Below the pieces are notes generated by a model, which did no database searches, was not told where the DNA came from, and saw nothing but the letters and a program-made list of their open reading frames with translations. Below are positions 36,396 to 57,837 of a stretch of 57,837 nt of DNA, piece by piece; within the stretch, counting starts at the first letter, position 1, and every line of letters begins with the position of its first letter. This DNA is from a virus (lineage: Duplodnaviria > Caudoviricetes). The stretch covers positions 1 to 57,837 of the IMG/VR virus record IMGVR_UViG_3300022745_000038; one strand, 5' to 3'. The translations under genes were made by a program, and so were the position numbers.

Positions 36396-38840
36396 TCAGT
36401 ACCCCACCAACGGGTCAAGAATGGTATTCGCCGCCACACGCTTCGGGCGGCCGGAAGGCATCAGCGCAGCACGCTTCAGCCCAGTCATGACGAGATACCG
36501 CAAGGCGTCCATCAGGTGGTCGTTGTCCTTCACGATCCGCCCCTTCTCGTCCCTCCGATAGACCCGGTACTCCATGAAAAAGTTCTGGCAGGACGCAAAG
36601 ACTTTGATCCGCCCGGTCGAGATCCTCCCCCAGACGTTGTAGATCCCAGCCTCCACCGCGTTCTCGGCGTCGGTCAGGTGCAGCCCCTCCGCCCGCAGCA
36701 TGCGCTTGACCAGCGAGCCGTCAACCTGCGACCCGCCGCCAGCAGGGTCGATCACGCCCGGGATCCATGGCCCTCTGGCTTTCACCGCGCTGGCAATGAC
36801 CGGTGGCTCAGCGTTTGAGCGATACAGCTCCGAGTAGATGTACAGGGTGTCGTTCGCGAGATCCACCGCCCCCCACAGACCAGCCGTCCGCTTCCACCCA
36901 ACGTCGAGCGCATACACCCGCGGCCAATGGTCAGGCACCTCGAAGTCCTTGACCTTGATATCGCTCTCGGCGATCGGGTAGATGACCCCCGATCCCAGCG
37001 TCGGGGTGCCGTTCTCGCGCGCCTCGCGCAGATGCGGCGGAGTCTCCGATCGCATCCTCTCCTTCGTGGCCTCGTCCAAGTGGGGGACGTGGTTCCAGCC
37101 GGCCTGGACCATCACACGACCATCGCGAACGGTCACCCCGTAGTCCTCGACGATCTTGGCGCCCTTGCCCATGTAGTGCTCCACGATGGCCGTCCGGCCT
37201 TTGAGTGGGGTGAAAGTCTCGATCAGCAGGCCGCCGGTCGTCATCAGGCGCAGCACCGCCTCGTTGCGAACATCCTCCGGCCCTTCCTCGTCCAGCCCCA
37301 CGCCGTCCTTCGCCGTCCCCTGCCACGCGCGCCGGCCCTGGTCGTAGGATTTCATCCCGAGACGAGACATGCCGCCGCTCTTGTGGCGGATCAAGGCGTA
37401 GTCGATCGCGCGGCCCGTGTTAGGGCGCACCGTGGGCTGGCCGATGATCAGGTCGCCGGGGATCATCCCGGTGCCCCATTGACCTTGGTCGCCGAACATC
37501 GCGACCTGCAAGATGTCCCGGACCGTCTCGGAGGTGTCACCCCCCATCCACCAATCCACCGGCTTGTCGAAGCGGTGACCGCTCCACCAGTCGGGGTAGA
37601 GGCCGGTCAGGTGGAGCGTCGTCTCGTAGGCGTTGACAACGGTGTTGTGGTGGACGACCCCGGCGCAGAAGTAATTCCGGTGGGTCTCGACCTCGAAGTC
37701 GAACACTTCATGCGAGCCAATAGAGTAGACTGCGACCACCCGCACGCCCAAAGGAAGCCGCAATGGACATTGACCAAGTTCGATCTCTAGTGGCTCGCAT
37801 GCCACACCGGCAAGCCGCCGAGATTCTTGGCGTGAGCATCCAGCGTCTGGCGACGTTCTGCTCAAAACACGGGATCCTTCGCCGGCCTCAGTCGAAGAAA
37901 ACCCCGAGTTTCGACCCCGCGCTCCTGAAGAAGATGATCGAAGTGGATCTGCTAACCCAAGAGCAGGCCGCCGCCCAACTTGGCGTGAATCGGACAACGG
38001 TAGAGCAATGGTGCTGTCGGCTGAAATTACAGACCCAAAGGACTGGCCCTCGAGGAGGTGAACTCCACCCATCATGGACCGGAGGCGTGACCATTCGTCG
38101 GGGGTATCGATATCTCCACAGGCCCAATCACCCCAACGCGATAAAGCAGGGCTACGTCGCCGAGCACCGACTGGTGATGGAAGAAAAATTGGGCAGACTG
38201 CTGCTGCCCCGCGAGGTTGTCCATCACCGTAACGGGGATCCTTTGGACAATCGCCCGGAGAACCTTGAGTTGTTTCGTTCCAATGGCGAGCATCTACGGC
38301 ACGAACTGACTGGCCGTATCCCCAACTGGACAGAATCGGGTCGTCAGGCAATCCTGATCGGCGTCGAGAAAGCTGTACGTAATCGCCGAGATGCAGCCAT
38401 CCGTCGACGGTCAGGATCCGGTGACCCAGCGCAGCCTCAAACCACCGACCATTCGACAGATGCACCCGAAGGCACGGCTCCGGCTTCGGCTTGATGAACG
38501 GGGCAGAGGCGCGCGCCACAACGCGCTTCTCGCCATCCCACGCCATTACATCGAATGGGCGACCAGCGTCAACCAACCTGGCCAGAGGAATGTCGCCTTC
38601 AGGGGCCTCGATTGAGTTGACAATTGTGCAACATTTTCCAATCCTGTTGCCCGCAATGAAGGCTCGGGTCTTGAAGTCCCGCCCGGCGCTGAAGAACAGC
38701 ATGTGCCGCGGATAGAGGTGCCGCGCATGCGCCCCATCCTCCGGGAACCAGACGAACAGCTTCTGCCGCGAGCGGCGATACTCAAGCTCCGCCAGAAGCT
38801 CGATCAGCGCTTCTTGTTCGTCCCTTGTGGTTGCTCCCAT
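36396..38840 (-). CDS. terL: Terminase large subunit with an intein
   Basis: AGNRIGK[intein]T Walker A, LDEE Walker B, TFTP, ALDVG, DHLMDALRY. Confidence 0.95.
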   Translation of the reverse strand: MGATTRDEQEALIELLAELEYRRSRQKLFVWFPEDGAHARHLYPRHMLFFSAGRDFKTRAFIAGNRIGKCCTIVNSIEAPEGDIPLARLVDAGRPFDVMAWDGEKRVVARASAPFIKPKPEPCLRVHLSNGRWFEAALGHRILTVDGWLHLGDYVQLSRRRSGLPDDPILSSWGYGQSVRAVDARHWNETTQGSPGDCPKDPRYGDGQPRGAAAVCPIFLPSPVGARRRSPALSRWGDWACGDIDTPDEWSRLRSMMGGVHLLEGQSFGSVISADSTIALPLSDSRQVGRRPALGLADPLRSSSSGARGRNSGFSSTEAGEGSRVLSRTSPDAGCSRQESRRLAGVACEPLEIELGQCPLRLPLGVRVVAVYSIGSHEVFDFEVETHRNYFCAGVVHHNTVVNAYETTLHLTGLYPDWWSGHRFDKPVDWWMGGDTSETVRDILQVAMFGDQGQWGTGMIPGDLIIGQPTVRPNTGRAIDYALIRHKSGGMSRLGMKSYDQGRRAWQGTAKDGVGLDEEGPEDVRNEAVLRLMTTGGLLIETFTPLKGRTAIVEHYMGKGAKIVEDYGVTVRDGRVMVQAGWNHVPHLDEATKERMRSETPPHLREARENGTPTLGSGVIYPIAESDIKVKDFEVPDHWPRVYALDVGWKRTAGLWGAVDLANDTLYIYSELYRSNAEPPVIASAVKARGPWIPGVIDPAGGGSQVDGSLVKRMLRAEGLHLTDAENAVEAGIYNVWGRISTGRIKVFASCQNFFMEYRVYRRDEKGRIVKDNDHLMDALRYLVMTGLKRAALMPSGRPKRVAANTILDPLVGY
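37644..38633 (-). mobile_element. Intein (330 aa) in the TerL Walker A motif
   Basis: Starts with Cys after GK; block B GHRILT; ends VFDFEVETHRNYFCAGVVHHN followed by Thr. Confidence 0.92.
37763..38494 (+). CDS. HTH + HNH endonuclease encoded antisense inside the TerL intein
   Basis: AAGGA RBS; two HTH-like segments; YVAEHRLVME..VVHHRNGDPLDNRPENL. Confidence 0.88.
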   Translation: MDIDQVRSLVARMPHRQAAEILGVSIQRLATFCSKHGILRRPQSKKTPSFDPALLKKMIEVDLLTQEQAAAQLGVNRTTVEQWCCRLKLQTQRTGPRGGELHPSWTGGVTIRRGYRYLHRPNHPNAIKQGYVAEHRLVMEEKLGRLLLPREVVHHRNGDPLDNRPENLELFRSNGEHLRHELTGRIPNWTESGRQAILIGVEKAVRNRRDAAIRRRSGSGDPAQPQTTDHSTDAPEGTAPASA

Positions 38841-39040
38841 GGCCTCGTCTTCAGCATGTGATCGAGCAGCAGCGCCTCTTGCGCGCACTGCGTCCACACT
38901 GATCGTGCCACACCGCACCGGTCCGGTTCGCCAGGGCGGACAGCCGTCGAACGGATGATCCCGTCAGCAGCGAGCGCGACGGTCATGTAGCAGACGATGC
39001 CAGCGCGCAGCCACTCCTCGTCTTGGATGTCGTCGATCAT
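38804..39040 (-). CDS. Small hypothetical protein
   Basis: ATGA overlap with the endolysin stop. Confidence 0.5.
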   Translation of the reverse strand: MIDDIQDEEWLRAGIVCYMTVALAADGIIRSTAVRPGEPDRCGVARSVWTQCAQEALLLDHMLKTRPWEQPQGTNKKR

Positions 39041-53920: not shown

Positions 53921-54739
53921 CTACACCGACTGCATCAGATTGACAAGTGCTCTCACCCCCATTCTGCGGTGCATGTCGTTCGCATCCTCGCCCTCAAGCG
54001 GGGACATCACCCACGGCCGGCCGATTTTCTCTGCCGCTTCCTGCCCGCGCCGGCTCTCGTCATGATCGGCGAAGACCTTGGCGTCGCTGAAGTATGGCGC
54101 TACGTGCTCCATGTTGCCGGCAGAGAAGCAGACGATGACCTGCGTCGGCAGCATCATCGACTCTGCGGCCGCGCGAATCGACAGGCCCGTGGCGTAGCCT
54201 TCGCACAACCACTTCGATCGCACCGCCTTGCGGGGGCCCATGACGTGAACAGCGCCCTTGGCACGACCGCCCGGGAGGAACTTCTTGCCCCCGTCCTTGG
54301 CGATCCGCTGGACGTTGATCAGGTCGTCTGTCCGATGGTCCCGCATCGGGACGAGAAGAACATCGTCAAGGACGAACCCTGTAGCCTTCTGGAGGCCCTT
54401 GGCGACGAGATAGGCGTGCCCGGCCAGTTCGGCCTCTCCCATCATCCTGCGCGCCTCAGCGGCCGCCTGAGCGTGCTGGCGGGCCATTTTCTCGGCCTTC
54501 GCCCGCCGCTCCGCCACTGTGGCGGACCAGTCTGCCGGCGCGGCATCCTGGCCCTTCCACATCACGGGGGAATCCATGGTCGCCCAGTTCTGCGCCCAGC
54601 CAATGTTTCGTTCGAGCTTGTAGGCCCCGTTCCGGCGGTGCGCGTGATCTGCGGTCGGGACCCGGTGCCACGCGCCGTCTGCAATGAGTCGATCGATGAT
54701 CAGGCCATGCGCGAGCGCGAACGATCGGAAGTCGCTCAT
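53921..54739 (-). CDS. TOPRIM-domain DNA primase (TraC-like)
   Basis: HAYL..KG, LLVPM, KKFL.GG, CEGYATGLS, FSAGN, ADHD, DAND. Confidence 0.9.
   Translation of the reverse strand: MSDFRSFALAHGLIIDRLIADGAWHRVPTADHAHRRNGAYKLERNIGWAQNWATMDSPVMWKGQDAAPADWSATVAERRAKAEKMARQHAQAAAEARRMMGEAELAGHAYLVAKGLQKATGFVLDDVLLVPMRDHRTDDLINVQRIAKDGGKKFLPGGRAKGAVHVMGPRKAVRSKWLCEGYATGLSIRAAAESMMLPTQVIVCFSAGNMEHVAPYFSDAKVFADHDESRRGQEAAEKIGRPWVMSPLEGEDANDMHRRMGVRALVNLMQSV
54510..54526. repeat. 17-bp palindrome copy 16, encodes SATVAE in the primase linker
   Basis: TCCGCCACTGTGGCGGA. Confidence 0.95.
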
Positions 54740-57084
54740 GCCGCCCTCCGCGCTTTGCCGCGCGCCCAGCGGATTACGGCGGACTTGATATACGAGTAGA
54801 TGGCCGGATCAGGATGCGCTGCCGCGTGCGCCATCGAGTAGTCGCGAGGTGGCCAGTCGCCATAGATCGAGTGGTACTGCGCCTTTGCGAACCGCTCGGC
54901 CGATGACACGTCACCACGCTTCCAGTCGAGAGCCACCGCAGCGATCTCCTTCCAGGCGTAGAACTTGTTCTCCTGCCATGCGTGTTTGTTCTTCCGCTGG
55001 CCGATGTCCAGTTCGACCATGGTGCCGGCGACGTTCTCCACCATCGACAGCCGGGCCGGGCGCTCCCATCCGCAGGACGGGCACACTTTCGCCCCGCCAA
55101 GAGCATAGTGGCACGACGGGCAGGCGAACATCTCCCGCTCTTCCTCGGTCGGCTCCTTGCGCTCCTTGGCGTCGAGAGACTCCCCGGACAACTCCTGCAC
55201 GCCATGGGCGAACAGATCGATGGTGTCGTCGAAGAACCGGGCGAAATTGCCTGAGTGATCAAGCCACAGGGCGTACTCCTTGCCTTCGTGGGGCCGCATC
55301 ACCCGGCCCAACTGCTGGATGTGCGACGAGAACGACTTCCGGTAGGGGTGCGCGTCCACCCCACAGAGAATGTGCGTGGCATCGAACCCCTTGCCCAGCG
55401 CCACGCAGGAAATGAGCCCGACGATGTCACTGCCCGGGGCCTTGAAGTCCGCGATCAGTTGCGCGTTCTCTTCGTCCTTGTTGCGGTAGGACACCACCTG
55501 AAAGTTGTGGCCGGCAGCCTGAAACTGCCGCGCCAGTTCGATGCAATGATCCACCGTCGCGCCGAATACGATCGACGGAACCGGCCCGCCGAAGTGTTCC
55601 TGCGTCTTCGCAACCCACTCGGCAACCACGTCACCGACAATGGCCATTCCGCGCTCGGTCAGGGCCGCCTCGGTCCACTCACCGGTCGATGACACCTTGG
55701 CGCCGCGCATGTCGGCGGCAACCGCCAGATAGGGTCGGATCGGGGCGAGGTGTCCTTCCTCCACCAGTTGATCTGTCGTGGTGCAACTCACCACTTTGCT
55801 GAACAGGTCGCCGAGTCCCTTGGTGAAAGGCGTGGCGGTCAGGCCGACCACGAACACGTCAGGGTGCTCGCGCATGAATTCCGCAGTCGCCTTGAACGTG
55901 GTGTGGCAGTTGTGGACTAGCCTCCCATCAGCGAAGTAAGAAGGGTGCCCGGAGACGTGCAGGTTGTAGACAACCGCATCGCTTCCGCATTCTTCACGCG
56001 AAACACTGACCACCCTCTGGAACCAAGAAAGGCCGTCTTCCTCGCGTCCGCCTCCCGAACCTTCGTCGAATAGTGACTCCCCCCGTCTACCTCGATCGCC
56101 ACCATCATTGATGGACTCGCCAAGTCGATCTTGTAGTGCGACGGAAGCCCGCCCGCCCTCCTCTGCCCGGTCGGGACAATGAATTCTGCGCTCCAACCTT
56201 CCCCAAGAATCTGCAACAGCCGTTGCTGAGGAACGGAGAGAGGACTCCCATTCCCACCATGCACCTTTGGCTTGTGCCCAATCTTCCTCAACGTCGTCGA
56301 CATCTTCTGACGAACTTCTTGAGAGTGCATTGGGTTTTTCAATTTCTTGGCACAACTTTTGGAGCAGGTCACGCGCGCGACCCACACCACTCTTGATTCC
56401 GCCTGAACTGTTCCCCTGTGGTTTGGCCTGAACTGCGGCCTGTAAAGCACGCCACATTGCGGGCAAATCTTCGACTCTCGCAACGCGGTGACCTGCCAAC
56501 TCTCTCGCGGCGACCCATCCTCCATCCGTGAAGAACGGGTGCGAACCTGTGCAAACTGTTTCATGTCCATCCTCGAATGCGACGCGAACCATATCCCGTC
56601 GGCCTATGGGGGCGGCTACCGTTCCGCGAACAATCCCGCGTCCAACAGCGGTAAGAACGGCGTCTCCTGGCCTCACAGATTCTATAGCAACACCCCCGTC
56701 CGGGGTCATCACCTTCGTTCCAGCGACAAAGCACTCGTCCACAACCAGAAGATCAACCTGCTCCGGCCACCCGCGCCGGGCAACGGTCTGCGGGCTCGCC
56801 ACCTGGATGTACTCGTACCCGCGAGCGCGCCAGTGGTTGCCCTGGATCACCCCGTGTGGGATTCCGTACCGGTCGAGCGTTGCGCTGGTCTGGTCGATCA
56901 GGGAGATGCGATCGGCCATGAAGACGCCACGCCTCTTCCGTGACCAGCAGTTGTGCAGGAAGTGCGAGGCAACGACCGTTTTCCCTGCCCCGGTGGGCAG
57001 GTACAGCAGTTGATGCTTATCCGTGGGCGCGTTTGCCCGAAGCGTCGCTACGGCCTCTTCCTGATACGGTCTGAGTTCGACCAT
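54736..57084 (-). CDS. SF2 DNA helicase (DExH, RadD/YejH-like) with an intein
   Basis: LRPYQ, PTGAGKT, DE[intein]CH, GLTATP, KGFD, QQLGRVMR, Zn finger. Confidence 0.95.
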   Translation of the reverse strand: MVELRPYQEEAVATLRANAPTDKHQLLYLPTGAGKTVVASHFLHNCWSRKRRGVFMADRISLIDQTSATLDRYGIPHGVIQGNHWRARGYEYIQVASPQTVARRGWPEQVDLLVVDECFVAGTKVMTPDGGVAIESVRPGDAVLTAVGRGIVRGTVAAPIGRRDMVRVAFEDGHETVCTGSHPFFTDGGWVAARELAGHRVARVEDLPAMWRALQAAVQAKPQGNSSGGIKSGVGRARDLLQKLCQEIEKPNALSRSSSEDVDDVEEDWAQAKGAWWEWESSLRSSATAVADSWGRLERRIHCPDRAEEGGRASVALQDRLGESINDGGDRGRRGESLFDEGSGGGREEDGLSWFQRVVSVSREECGSDAVVYNLHVSGHPSYFADGRLVHNCHTTFKATAEFMREHPDVFVVGLTATPFTKGLGDLFSKVVSCTTTDQLVEEGHLAPIRPYLAVAADMRGAKVSSTGEWTEAALTERGMAIVGDVVAEWVAKTQEHFGGPVPSIVFGATVDHCIELARQFQAAGHNFQVVSYRNKDEENAQLIADFKAPGSDIVGLISCVALGKGFDATHILCGVDAHPYRKSFSSHIQQLGRVMRPHEGKEYALWLDHSGNFARFFDDTIDLFAHGVQELSGESLDAKERKEPTEEEREMFACPSCHYALGGAKVCPSCGWERPARLSMVENVAGTMVELDIGQRKNKHAWQENKFYAWKEIAAVALDWKRGDVSSAERFAKAQYHSIYGDWPPRDYSMAHAAAHPDPAIYSYIKSAVIRWARGKARRAA
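55909..56733 (-). mobile_element. Intein (275 aa) in the helicase DECH motif
   Basis: CFVAGTKV start, block B TGSHPF, end VYNLHVSGHPSYFADGRLVHN followed by Cys. Confidence 0.95.
55917..56564 (-). CDS. Zn-finger + DUF559/Vsr-like endonuclease in the +1 frame inside the helicase intein
   Basis: CPQC..CSKSC; KIDLA..AIEVDGGSH..D..K..FL..RGW.VFR; GAGG 6 nt before ATG 56564. Confidence 0.85.
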   Translation of the reverse strand: MKQFAQVRTRSSRMEDGSPRESWQVTALRESKICPQCGVLYRPQFRPNHRGTVQAESRVVWVARVTCSKSCAKKLKNPMHSQEVRQKMSTTLRKIGHKPKVHGGNGSPLSVPQQRLLQILGEGWSAEFIVPTGQRRAGGLPSHYKIDLASPSMMVAIEVDGGSHYSTKVREADARKTAFLGSRGWSVFRVKNAEAMRLSTTCTSPGTLLTSLMGG

Positions 57085-57837
57085 TCTGTCTTTCCTTCCT
57101 CTGAGCGTTCTTCAACTCCGTCGTGAGACGCGCAACCCGGTCCATAAGTTCATCTCGCGCCGCTTTGAGCGCACGATTTTCTGCGCGCAGGCGCTGCATC
57201 TCCTCGAACTGCTCATTGTCCTCGAACGCCTTCGCGCTCGCCGCGAGATCGGTCATGTCGGCCAGATGGTCCTGACACTCCTGATACTTGATGAGCAACT
57301 CCTCGTATTCCGGTCCGAGTGGGGACTTTTCCTTCGAGGGTGGCGCGAACGGGGCCTCAGCTTCACGCACTCCAACCTCGCCTTGGAGCACCTTGTCGGC
57401 CATCCCCTCACGCACCAAGCGCTGCGCTCGCTCCATGGTCCGCTTGCCGACGTCGGCAGCTTCCGCCAACTCCTCGACCGTGGCGGGATTTCGGTCCGCC
57501 ACAGTGGCGGACTTGGAAGTGATTGATTTTCCAGACTTCTCTGATCCGCCACTGTGGCGGACTGGTTCCGTCATGCCGGTAATTTCCGCGACCTTGACGA
57601 TGGCAACCGCGATCTGGGTCTTGTTCTGGTGCCGGCGGCGCGCGTTCTTCGATATGACCCAAAGTCCCGGCCTTTTGTCGGCGAAGTCCTCAAACCATGG
57701 CTCGACTCCAACCTCACGGCACGCCAGATACCGGTGCCACCCGTCAAGGATCATCCCCTCGTACATCGTGATCGGCTCCAGAAGGCCCTGGCTCTCTATG
57801 TCCGATGCCAGCGCTTTCAGTTCCGCGGGCGTCATGT
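57017..57837 (-). CDS. ParB/Srx N-terminal domain + HTH + coiled-coil protein (probably 5'-truncated)
   Basis: LASDI..GLLEPI..ILDGWHRYLAC..N.RRRH; HTH TVEELAEAADVGKRTMERA. Confidence 0.85.
   Translation of the reverse strand, partial: MTPAELKALASDIESQGLLEPITMYEGMILDGWHRYLACREVGVEPWFEDFADKRPGLWVISKNARRRHQNKTQIAVAIVKVAEITGMTEPVRHSGGSEKSGKSITSKSATVADRNPATVEELAEAADVGKRTMERAQRLVREGMADKVLQGEVGVREAEAPFAPPSKEKSPLGPEYEELLIKYQECQDHLADMTDLAASAKAFEDNEQFEEMQRLRAENRALKAARDELMDRVARLTTELKNAQRKERQNGRTQTVSGRGRSDASGKRAHG
57495..57511. repeat. 17-bp palindrome copy 17, SATVAD in the ParB-like gene
   Basis: gTCCGCCACAGTGGCGGAc. Confidence 0.95.
57545..57561. repeat. 17-bp palindrome copy 18, VRHSGG in the ParB-like gene
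   Basis: TCCGCCACTGTGGCGGA. Confidence 0.95.

Follow-up and report, generated by a model that had tools for sequence, protein, structure and literature searches.

The helicase gene analyzed here carries, at its motif II (DE/CH; slashes mark splice junctions), what is very probably a mobile intein with a homing endonuclease gene nested in the +1 frame of its coding sequence. The gene lies in a 57,837-nucleotide stretch of DNA from a virus of the Caudoviricetes (IMG/VR record IMGVR_UViG_3300022745_000038), the whole of which we call the window. Dual coding of this element is conserved; the nuclease frame is under purifying selection, and the helicase frame avoids stops. These selection signals speak for the family and for the near relatives of the window copy, whose own activity they do not prove.

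The helicase intein and the nuclease gene within it

Table 1. Positions of the helicase, intein, and nuclease features in the window and of the second intein that it contains
Feature	Positions	Strand	Remarks
SF2 (ResIII/DEAD-type) helicase precursor ORF	54736-57084	-	782 aa; C-terminal zinc-ribbon-like CPSC...CPSC
N-extein	56734-57084	-	aa 1-117; ends in helicase motif II ...VVDE; from the translation
Class-1 intein	55909-56733	-	275 aa, precursor aa 118-392; Cys1, block B CTGSHPF, terminal HN, +1 Cys
Hint N-terminal lobe	56476-56733	-	Intein residues 1-86; beta strands up to residue 86
In-frame "linker"	56023-56475	-	Intein residues 87-237; helicase-frame reading of the nuclease gene
Hint C-terminal lobe	55909-56022	-	Intein residues 238-275; blocks F/G, ...VYNLHVSGHPSYFADGRLVHN; pLDDT 94-96
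C-extein	54736-55908	-	aa 393-782; begins CHTT; would complete motif II as DECH; from the translation and intein-free alleles
Predicted zinc finger plus Vsr-like (EDxHD/DUF559) homing endonuclease ORF	55917-56570	-	+1 frame, helicase strand
Likely ribosome-binding site and start	56562-56574	-	GAGG 56574-56571, 6 nt, ATG 56564-56562
Cys4 zinc-finger-like module	56352-56465	-	C34, C37, C67, C71 (numbered from ATG 56564)
Nuclease core	55989-56132	-	K145, D147, E158, D160, H164, D173, K176, N192 invariant (67-sequence alignment)
Terminase intein	37644-38633	-	Second intein of the window
HNH ORF in terminase intein	37763-38494	Antisense to terminase	HNH_3, E = 1.2e-10

An earlier note on this DNA, made from the sequence by itself, had placed a 275-aa intein in the helicase, splitting DE/CH, and the translation bears this out (Table 1). 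The junctions read VVDE/CFVAGTKV and GRLVHN/CHTT. Pfam matches of the helicase ORF to ResIII (E = 2.5e-15) and Helicase_C (E = 7.7e-5) both fall in the exteins, and 958 helicase homologues were found at E ≤ 1e-10 when 8000 candidates were scored. The first intein residue is a nucleophile, Cys, as expected of class 1, block B has the Thr-x-x-His sequence (CTGSHPFF, precursor aa 178-185), and the C terminus is His-Asn followed by a +1 Cys. In a 50-sequence alignment, H65 and N275 are invariant and T62 and H274 are at least 90% conserved, and by extrapolation the boundaries are canonical in 51 of the 56 relatives in which both lobes were found. The intein matches Pfam Hint_2 with 29.9 bits (cut-off, 28.4) and Intein_splicing with 27 bits, which is under the cut-off of 35.8; the C-terminal lobe corresponds to positions 122-155 of the latter profile. 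These Hint-type matches lie at the two ends of the intein only, and the middle, described previously as uninformative, is without any Pfam match.

The AF2 model of the helicase-frame intein has the same division. The lobes reach pLDDT 94-98, with ten-residue block means of 88-98 over intein residues 1-90, while most of the middle, that is, most of residues 136-233, is below 50. Two linker helices (residues 87-132) are moderately confident, with pLDDT of about 70-86, which leaves room for a small structured part within the linker. The linker is kept stop-free yet is without conservation as a protein. The best Foldseek match of the intein model is the gp41-1 intein (6QAZ; TM 0.85 on target), followed by many other inteins. 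Judging from the junctions, splicing would restore motif II as DECH, and intein-free alleles do read VDECHT. In two intein-free proteins, P0001 and P0002, the VDE-CHT junction is clean; their identity to the window exteins is 89% and 83%, respectively, compared with only 49% for the nearest protein that has an intein.

The same-strand +1 frame of the intein contains the DUF559/Vsr-like ORF that had been proposed to lie at 55917-56570. It matches DUF559 (PF04480) with an E value of 1.4e-8 (35.0 bits; cut-off, 20.6), and both CxxC...CSKSC and the string given for its nuclease domain, IEVDGGSH..D..K..GW.VFR, are present. The ORF encodes 217 aa from ATG 56570 or 215 aa from ATG 56564, and its TAG stop (55917-55919) falls within the codons for LVHN. 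Its 5' end reaches into block B and its 3' end into blocks F/G, and it is complete between the splicing blocks in its own frame while the host frame is uninterrupted. The helicase frame is stop-free from 57084 to 54739, so that the host gene is unbroken, unlike a fractured gene with a split intein.

The AF2 model of the +1 protein has a mean pLDDT of 90.1. Its best Foldseek match is 3R3P, the homing endonuclease I-Bth0305I (probability 1.00; TM 0.68 on target); 3HRL also matches (TM 0.67), and 1VSR and 1CW0 are found further down the list. The Foldseek E values are modest (best, 2.9e-3) because the Vsr-like domain is only about half of the model. A profile of 67 nuclease relatives matches 3hrl (1.4e-8) and 3r3p (7.5e-3) in the PDB, and the alignment to 3hrl spans the nuclease core. 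E158, D160, H164, D173, and K176 are invariant in the 67 sequences and, judged by this alignment, are candidates for the catalytic Glu/Asp...His...Asp set. All four Cys residues of the zinc module are at least 90% conserved in the same sequences, and the module has weak profile matches to MYM-type and eL24-type zinc modules.

Layout in relatives and selection on the two frames

A blastn search of the region against phage records gave no match, and relatives were found by protein-level searches only. In all four of the named phages examined (of 40 matching records), the nuclease is +1 relative to the host gene. Among 80 IMG/VR loci, which are part of 197 relatives, 71 have the +1 layout, with an open frame of 409-2199 codons that covers the entire match at the nuclease frame minus 1; because the loci were retrieved through their similarity to overprinted nucleases, this proportion is biased towards the overprinted form. 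None of the 80 has such a frame in the other sense frame. Of 61 genome loci, 31 have the +1 layout, and these are 31 of the 36 strongest matches; the loci counted here lack phylogenetic independence. In these 71 and 31 loci, the nuclease and the Hint lobes are always at or adjoining helicase motif II. Carriers include Vibrio and Pseudomonas phages, uncultured viral contigs, and genomes labelled with many bacterial phyla and one archaeon; cultured relatives include Pseudomonas phage MR14 and phages of Vibrio lentus and V. crassostreae.

Other layouts also occur. Five of the 80 loci (L037, L044, L071, L072, and L083) have a split layout in a related helicase, in which the two halves share a frame and the nuclease is +1 to it. 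A single locus, L084, has an in-frame DUF559 intein, in a UvrD-type helicase, and two free-standing nuclease relatives (L065 and L085) adjoin intein-free helicase genes.

Selection on the overlap follows the nuclease frame. In 66 unique sequences, the entropy at nuclease codon positions 1, 2, and 3 is 1.21, 1.11, and 1.60 bits. Alignment in the helicase frame gives the same result, with helicase position 1 the most variable in the intein middle (1.61 bits), and the 120 helicase codons upstream of the overlap have the normal pattern, with 1.82 bits at helicase position 3. At 13 sites that vary among related metagenome contigs, the changes are 9 synonymous to 4 nonsynonymous in the nuclease frame and 3 synonymous to 10 nonsynonymous in the helicase frame; extein variants are 17 synonymous to 5 nonsynonymous.

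The helicase frame, for its part, is kept free of stops. Over the +1 ORF it has 0 stops versus 7.9 expected from synonymous-codon shuffles of the nuclease, and 0 of 2000 shuffles are stop-free, while the third sense frame has 8 stops versus 7.6 expected. All 71 overprinted loci have 0 stops versus 1.2-12 expected, and fewer than 5% of shuffles are stop-free in 65 of them; the nine non-overprinted loci have 7-25 stops, which is near expectation. A helicase-frame stop arises only where a T-ending nuclease codon precedes a codon starting with AA, AG, or GA. In the window, T-ending codons occupy 0 of 50 such positions versus 43 of 177 elsewhere, and in the pooled loci the values are 0 of 4283 versus 2762 of 11577. 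Each such T is synonymously replaceable by C, so that keeping the helicase frame open costs the nuclease protein nothing.

Expression, mobility, and alternative explanations

The GAGG that had been noticed ahead of ATG 56564 is indeed there, 6 nt before it, and the family-conserved ATG (56570-56568) abuts this GAGG. There is no Shine-Dalgarno sequence at the usual 7-nt spacing before ATG 56570 in the window, and the GAGG suits the second ATG only; in related loci, GGAG or GAGG is often found 7 nt upstream of the homologous ATG. A scan of 55700-57400 detected no promoter-like site and one terminator-like site, which is outside the gene, the latter being no more than in shuffles. The predicted RNA fold around the start (56520-56640) is no more stable than that of shuffles (z = +0.93). 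None of the sequencing runs listed for the stretch is an RNA run.

Independent internal initiation is the likeliest route to the nuclease and, judged on sequence features, seems to fit better than a programmed +1 ribosomal frameshift within the intein, which would yield a fusion of N-extein, Hint N-lobe, and nuclease and which we regard as unlikely. A frameshift would be in keeping with the overlap of both ORFs on one strand, with a phase that is always +1, with the missing well-spaced Shine-Dalgarno sequence before ATG 56570 in the window, and with the fact that neither a promoter nor an RNA structure marks an independent start. Against it, a homologous ATG, formed from the NAT-GGN codons for a host (D/N)-G, is present in all 17 loci in which block B could be placed (19 tried), and the T-ending Asp or Asn codon that this ATG requires is used in 13 of 13 contiguous loci, for which the product of the base rates is 10^-3.7. 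Moreover, a +1-frame stop lies no more than eight codons upstream of the ATG in most of the placed loci (from a listing read by eye), four split-intein relatives have the nuclease as a separate gene starting at the same ATG, and CP-T1 and MR14 have a GAGG nine nucleotides before theirs.

The other alternatives concern the nuclease itself. The earlier note had named, as the finding that would overturn its reading, homologues with an ordinary in-frame DUF559 intein, the window copy then having compensating sequencing frameshifts. One such intein does exist among the relatives (L084), but it is 1 of 80, the same phase is found in four isolated, independently sequenced phages and in more than 100 other loci, and there are no indels where metagenome contigs from other studies match. 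Contigs from two such studies match 56336-56588, 56425-56575, and 56870-57020 with zero differences, a variant contig over 56120-56474 has 16 substitutions and no gaps, and no insertion or deletion is among the variants listed for any sequencing run compared. We therefore reject sequencing or assembly error, with two compensating frameshifts, which is extremely improbable. It is also quite unlikely that the +1 ORF is a decaying relic, open through recent ancestry, in what now acts as a mini-intein. Homing-endonuclease genes often decay after fixation, the window nuclease is without about 20 residues that follow the second Cys pair in the four named phage homologues, and its N-terminal 20 residues are predicted by AF2 to be disordered. 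Against this, the ORF is intact and keeps all 16 of the columns that are invariant in its 67 relatives, including E158, D160, H164, D173, and K176; the near-relative variants are mostly synonymous in its frame (9 of 13); and from residue 21 onward it is predicted to fold, with block mean pLDDT values of 74-98. Finally, an active nuclease could serve the phage, in inter-phage competition or DNA processing, and merely be lodged in the intein. The free-standing relatives beside intein-free helicase genes show that the nuclease can exist without an intein, but in 71 of 80 and 31 of 61 loci it accompanies the Hint lobes at or adjoining motif II, as expected of a homing unit, and the solved structure closest to it is that of an enzyme proven to act in homing (Taylor et al. 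2011, PMC3239194), so that we consider a phage-serving role very unlikely.

In the mobile intein that we favor, ribosomes in the helicase frame would pass straight through the nuclease gene and produce a precursor whose Hint lobes are joined by a largely unstructured linker of about 150 residues, and the Hint domain would excise itself, restoring DECH. Ribosomes that start at the internal site (GAGG-N6-ATG 56564 or the adjacent ATG 56570) would read the +1 frame and make a protein of about 215 aa in which a Cys4 zinc finger is combined with a Vsr-like (EDxHD) nuclease domain. In the manner of I-Bth0305I, this nuclease may cut the intein-free helicase alleles of co-infecting relatives, and repair after the cut would copy the whole element into the empty allele. 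Splicing, internal initiation, the cleavage target, and homing are thus steps that we infer.

Related systems and possible origin

The window has a second intein with a nuclease of a different family, as the earlier note had recognized: the terminase intein, with its antisense HNH ORF (Table 1). The note took the pair to suggest a general class of dual-coding inteins that annotation misses. It was right about the class, but inteins with out-of-frame nucleases are already known as a general kind from preprints of 2025-26, so the finding is less novel than the note assumed. Gosselin, Arsenault, and Gogarten (bioRxiv 10.1101/2025.01.02.630785) describe inteins of actinobacteriophages whose nucleases are encoded in a different frame or on the opposite strand, propose that they originate when a free-standing nuclease gene invades, and point out that annotation misses such ORFs. 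As described there, those inteins are like the one in the window in being contiguous, with an in-frame middle without recognizable fold and a complete nuclease ORF between the splicing blocks. Their nucleases are antisense LAGLIDADG, antisense VSR-like, and sense frame-3 endonuclease VII-like, whereas that of the window is sense-strand, +1, and VSR-like; their hosts are actinophage DNA polymerase, minor capsid, terminase, and thymidylate synthase genes rather than an SF2 helicase gene. A cyanobacterial dnaX intein whose LAGLIDADG nuclease is out of frame (Phillips, DeSimone, and Gogarten, bioRxiv 10.64898/2026.09.14.751524) likewise has a sense-strand overlapping nuclease ORF in a contiguous intein, with purifying selection reported for the nuclease frame and relaxed selection for the intein frame, as in the family studied here. 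It differs from the window intein in nuclease family, in its +2 ORF, in its dnaX host, and in having cellular rather than viral carriers.

In the "fractured genes" of Dassa et al. (2009, PMC2677866), a nuclease gene of the Vsr-like or GIY-YIG kind stands free between the two parts of a split intein. Loci L037, L044, L071, L072, and L083 are laid out in just this way, each with its helicase gene broken into two ORFs that encode one intein half apiece. The fractured genes share with the window the nuclease family, phage DNA-metabolism hosts, and a nuclease ORF that overlaps the downstream intein part, and the gp41-1 intein, which is the best match of the window intein model, is named among these loci. 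In contrast, the window has one contiguous, predicted cis-splicing intein in an unbroken helicase frame, and there is therefore no need for trans-splicing. I-Bth0305I (Taylor et al. 2011, PMC3239194; PDB 3R3P) is the prototype EDxHD (Vsr-like) homing endonuclease, and it too combines an N-terminal DNA-binding region with a C-terminal Vsr-like catalytic domain that has conserved acidic and His residues. However, it is encoded in a group I intron of recA and has NUMOD motifs, whereas the window protein is encoded out of frame in an intein and has a Cys4 zinc-finger-like module; the two are ~19% identical in the structural alignment. The ShiLan insertion (Arsenault et al. 2025, PMC11855218), in which a phage methylase gene hides an HNH nuclease out of frame, is similar in that a nuclease ORF overprints a host gene without closing its frame, but it has a different nuclease family, and the account given there has no splicing domain detected in it. 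Within the main texts of the open-access literature, we did not find a family of sense-strand +1 Vsr-like helicase inteins, although supplements could list more.

This one homologous family has four layouts (free-standing, split, overprinted, and in-frame), which lets the proposed routes of nuclease entry and of split-intein formation be compared directly. In a nuclease tree of 74 rows (quick method, unrooted), support is below 80 on 31 of 70 inner branches, four distinct split forms make up one clade with support of 100, and the free and in-frame forms lie among the overprinted ones. Being unrooted and built on biased sampling, the tree does not settle the order of the layouts. One tentative explanation, which we put at somewhat less than an even chance, is that +1 overprinting is the ancestral and stable state of this EDxHD-intein family and that the split and the rare in-frame forms are derivatives of it. 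The phase would then always be +1 because +1 costs the nuclease nothing except T-ending codons. If this is true, a split intein would arise where the host frame no longer avoids stops, as in the AT-rich split loci (GC 0.25-0.35), and overprinted inteins would be the missing intermediate from which natural split inteins originate.

With this nuclease, the EDxHD family gains a zinc-finger variant. The Hint domain, to which the gp41-1 intein is the nearest solved relative in structure searches, is predicted to tolerate an unstructured insert of about 150 residues. The nuclease is almost never reported by gene callers: a search of 5.8 billion predicted proteins gave only 33 nuclease relatives besides the window's own, many of them on contigs of ~1 kb, while the same database has hundreds of the helicases. 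It is therefore likely that these inteins are taken for "mini" or "decaying" ones devoid of a nuclease, and estimates of the number of inteins that are still mobile are distorted in consequence. The stop-avoidance rule is a simple sequence signature by which more cases can be found.

The helicase intein and its +1-frame nuclease

The window, an IMG/VR virus record, is 57,837 bases long and has an estimated completeness of 81%; the contigs found to be identical or nearly identical to the stretch all came from runs with freshwater or aquatic metagenome labels. Its helicase is interrupted at motif II, where ...LLVVDE is followed by CFVAGTKV... and, 275 residues on, ...GRLVHN is followed by CHTT. 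The insert has the features of a class 1 intein (Cys1, block B CTGSHPF, a terminal His-Asn, and a +1 Cys), and its splicing would restore DECH. Pfam matches this intein at its two ends alone (Hint_2, 29.9 bits versus a cutoff of 28.4), and its middle has no Pfam match in the host frame. In a model of the helicase-frame intein built from its own 50-sequence alignment, the two Hint lobes alone fold (pLDDT 94 to 98), most of residues 136 to 233 have a pLDDT of <50, and the top structural match is the gp41-1 intein (6QAZ; TM 0.85 on target). Residues 87 to 132 are modelled as two helices, with a pLDDT of about 70 to 86, and may be a small structured linker.

The +1 ORF scores 35.0 bits against DUF559 (cutoff, 20.6). 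The AlphaFold model of its product (67-sequence alignment) has a mean pLDDT of 90.1, and its top structural match is the catalytic domain of I-Bth0305I (3R3P; probability 1.00, TM 0.68 on target), the nuclease characterised by Taylor et al. 2011 (PMC3239194), followed by the DUF559 structure 3HRL and then Vsr. A sequence-profile search with the nuclease family finds 3hrl at 1.4e-8 and 3r3p at 7.5e-3. Sixteen columns of the 67-sequence alignment are invariant, including E158, D160, H164, D173, and K176, and Cys 34, 37, 67, and 71, each at least 90% conserved, form a zinc-finger-like module N-terminal of the nuclease core.

The terminase intein carries an antisense ORF, over which the terminase frame has no stops versus 6.7 expected (stop-free shuffles, 0 of 1,000). 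Of 124 matching phage records, 15 were listed, and most of the named features beneath the match in these are HNH endonuclease genes. The earlier note was thus right that each of the phage's two inteins conceals a nuclease that is out of frame with its host. The two are a DUF559 match in the +1 frame of the helicase and an HNH_3 match antisense to the terminase.

Features of the window and of related IMG/VR loci (L-numbers)
Feature	Position	Strand	Domains or remarks
SF2 helicase ORF, 782 aa	54736..57084	-	ResIII (E 2.5e-15) + Helicase_C
Vsr-like nuclease ORF	55917..56570	- (+1 frame of helicase)	DUF559 (E 1.4e-8)
Terminase large subunit	36396..38918	-	Terminase_6N + Terminase_6C
Terminase intein, 330 aa	37644..38633	-	after Walker A GK
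Antisense ORF in terminase intein, 243 aa	37763..38494	+	helix-turn-helix + HNH_3 (E 1.2e-10)
Split-intein "fractured" helicases	L037 (1953-4439), L044, L071, L072, L083		intein homologous to the window's
Free-standing nuclease directly upstream of intein-free helicase gene	L065 2794-4558; L085 2890-5158		
In-frame DUF559 intein in UvrD-type (SF1) helicase	L084 1624-4419		Intein_splicing residues 309-612, DUF559 503-565

Conservation of the overprinted layout

The layout is conserved and is not an artefact. Contigs from other studies are identical to the stretch over 56336-56588, 56870-57020, and 56425-56575, a variant contig over 56120-56474 has 16 substitutions and no gaps, and there are no indels among the differences listed for matching metagenome contigs. 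The sole contig that spans the whole stretch comes from the possible source run and is not independent. A tblastn search of phage records with the +1 protein matches 40 records (37 Vibrio, 2 Corynebacterium, and 1 Pseudomonas), all at <60% identity (34 to 43% in the 30 rows listed). The matches listed lie beneath helicase-type or unnamed CDSs, and in all four phages examined (CP-T1, MR14, 104E43.1, and 1.088.O) the matched segment is read in the +1 frame relative to a helicase CDS that bears an intein. The nuclease has mostly been overlooked by gene callers.

An IMG/VR pattern scan found 197 loci related to the nuclease, of which the best 80 were kept. In 71 of these 80, the whole match lies within an open frame of 409 to 2,199 codons at the nuclease frame minus 1; the other sense frame is open across the whole match in none of the 80. 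By blastp, the window's Hint N-lobe matches 64 of the 71 overprinted loci. The 16 host ORFs that are unlike the window's exteins all have Hint-type matches, and 15 have helicase-family domains; several are helicases fused to a DNA methylase, and one (L050) has methylase and Hint matches alone at E ≤ 1e-5. Extrapolation gave canonical boundaries for 51 inteins; 48 of these start after DE, and the +1 residue is Cys in 47 of the 51 and Ser in 4. With one genome per species, the overprinted layout is found in 31 of 61 genome loci, which are 31 of the 36 strongest matches, in records labelled as many phyla (including Ktedonobacter racemifer DSM 44963 and Endozoicomonas atrinae); the leftover weak matches are ordinary short DUF559 hits.

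Besides the window's own, only 33 proteins in the predicted-protein collection resemble the nuclease (E ≤ 1e-5), many of them on contigs of ~1 kb with a truncated helicase ORF. The nuclease is annotated as "endonuclease domain-containing protein" or "DUF559 domain-containing protein" in a few NCBI records (Xanthobacter, Paracoccus, and a Betaproteobacteria MAG).

Constraint on the two frames and the limits of the nuclease ORF

In the window, the helicase frame has no stops across the nuclease ORF versus 7.9 expected from synonymous-codon shuffles, none of 2,000 of which is stop-free, while the third sense frame has 8 stops versus 7.6 expected. The helicase frame is likewise free of stops in all 71 overprinted loci (1.2 to 12 expected), and in 65 of them <5% of shuffles are stop-free; the nine non-overprinted loci have 7 to 25 stops, near expectation. 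A helicase-frame stop requires a T-ending nuclease codon before a codon starting with AA, AG, or GA. T-ending codons occur in 0 of 50 such pairs in the window versus 43 of 177 other codons, and in 0 of 4,283 versus 2,762 of 11,577 elsewhere when 66 sequences are pooled, counts that give the size of the constraint and are no independent test, since the loci were chosen as open. NNT and NNC encode the same amino acid throughout the standard code, and the +1 phase therefore requires no amino acid change in the nuclease. This may be the reason that the phase is always +1; common descent predicts the same pattern.

In the nuclease-protein alignment of 66 unique overprinted sequences, the first, second, and third nuclease codon positions have entropies of 1.21, 1.11, and 1.60 bits, respectively, and position 3 varies most in 70% of 169 columns. 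Because this alignment could favor the nuclease frame, we realigned the sequences by the helicase frame, and the greatest variability is then at helicase position 1 (1.61 bits), the nucleotide that is also nuclease position 3. The 120 helicase codons 5' of the overlap have the ordinary pattern, with 1.82 bits at helicase position 3. For near-relative variants, 40 of 66 differences were listed, from low-depth contigs. Of the 13 listed in the nuclease-only part, 9 are synonymous and 4 nonsynonymous in the nuclease frame, versus 3 and 10, respectively, in the helicase frame; of the 22 in the exteins, 17 are synonymous and 5 nonsynonymous. These sequence variants agree with the entropy result on which frame appears to be selected.

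Block B could be placed in 17 of the 19 loci nearest to the window. In all 17, host (D/N)-G codons (NAT GGN) create a +1 ATG that lies six codons upstream of the block B Cys-Thr, and in many GGAG or GAGG lies 7 nt 5' of this ATG. The (D/N) codon ends in T in 13 of 13 contiguous loci checked, a base-rate product of 10^-3.7, which overstates the significance since the loci are related. The conserved ATG of the window is at 56570; the GAGG that the earlier note had seen before ATG 56564 is present at a spacing of 6 nt and precedes the second ATG. The CP-T1 and MR14 nucleases instead start just past the Hint N-lobe, where a GAGG lies 9 nt 5' of the start. The stop codon is TAG in 40 of 49 relatives, and in 18 of 49, as in the window, the stop is 8 nt short of the last intein base, within the LVHN codons. 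In four of the 49 (L012, L016, L021, and L050) the nuclease ORF extends beyond the intein end, running 10 to 217 nt into the C-extein coding region without a stop in blocks F/G. From its start and stop positions, the nuclease ORF therefore shares sequence with block B at its 5' end and with blocks F/G at its 3' end. Over the final ~20 columns of the nuclease-aligned overprinted sequences, constraint is about equal at all three codon positions, the outcome expected if both frames are important in that part.

We propose that the helicase frame is translated through the intein, which would then be spliced, and that the nuclease is produced separately, most likely from its own start. The spliced intein and the separate, presumably DNA-cleaving nuclease would together make up a homing unit.

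Other layouts, published systems, and mobility

Split loci have a helicase ORF ending after the Hint N-lobe, then the nuclease ORF, and then a third ORF opening with the Hint C-lobe. The two helicase halves are in one frame with the nuclease at +1 to both, and the nuclease begins at an ATG homologous to that of the window's subfamily. These loci are on AT-rich viral contigs (GC 0.25 to 0.35); L071 and L072 gave identical output. Their layout is the "fractured gene" layout of Dassa et al. 2009 (PMC2677866), who describe split inteins with Vsr-like nucleases. The finding joins the overprinted and split layouts within one family. In a quick nuclease tree with unresolved deep branches and biased sampling, the split forms are one clade (support 100) and the other layouts fall among the overprinted forms. 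L084 is the sole in-frame case in the best 80 of 197 viral loci. The placement of the nuclease in L065 and L085 would fit an enzyme aimed at alleles of the adjoining gene; in L082 the nuclease is free-standing elsewhere.

Inteins with out-of-frame nucleases, the dual-coding class proposed in the earlier note, are already published as a kind. The accessible text of a preprint by Gosselin et al. 2025 (10.1101/2025.01.02.630785) describes actinophage inteins with antisense LAGLIDADG and antisense VSR-like nucleases, as well as sense frame-3 endonuclease VII-like nucleases and in-frame HNH nucleases, and states that VSR-like nucleases had otherwise been known only with split inteins; it makes no mention that we found of antisense HNH. 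Phillips et al. 2026 (preprint, 10.64898/2026.09.14.751524) report a sense-strand out-of-frame LAGLIDADG in a dnaX intein, with, as described there, the same selection pattern as the window's family. A search of open-access main texts gave no paper describing a contiguous helicase intein with a Vsr-like nuclease in the +1 frame of the sense strand. The finding is well supported, and the group is apparently large and widespread.

Two predicted proteins, P0001 and P0002, are 89% and 83% identical to the window's exteins and lack the intein exactly (VDE-CHT), while the closest intein-bearing protein has 49% identity. Either a homing element or precise loss would be expected to give such patchy presence, which is not evidence of recent transfer.

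Further Hint matches lie apart from the overprinted intein in the 1,390-aa ORF of L059/L062/L064 (Hint_2, residues 989 to 1032 of L059) and in L018 (PT-HINT, residues 177 to 271), and these helicase or helicase-methylase proteins may have a second intein. Three helicase homologues of 858 to 1,116 aa (P0069, P0111, and P0118) have precomputed LAGLIDADG-intein Pfam matches (PF05203, PF05204, and PF14528), and the window's helicase family also seems to host canonical in-frame LAGLIDADG inteins.
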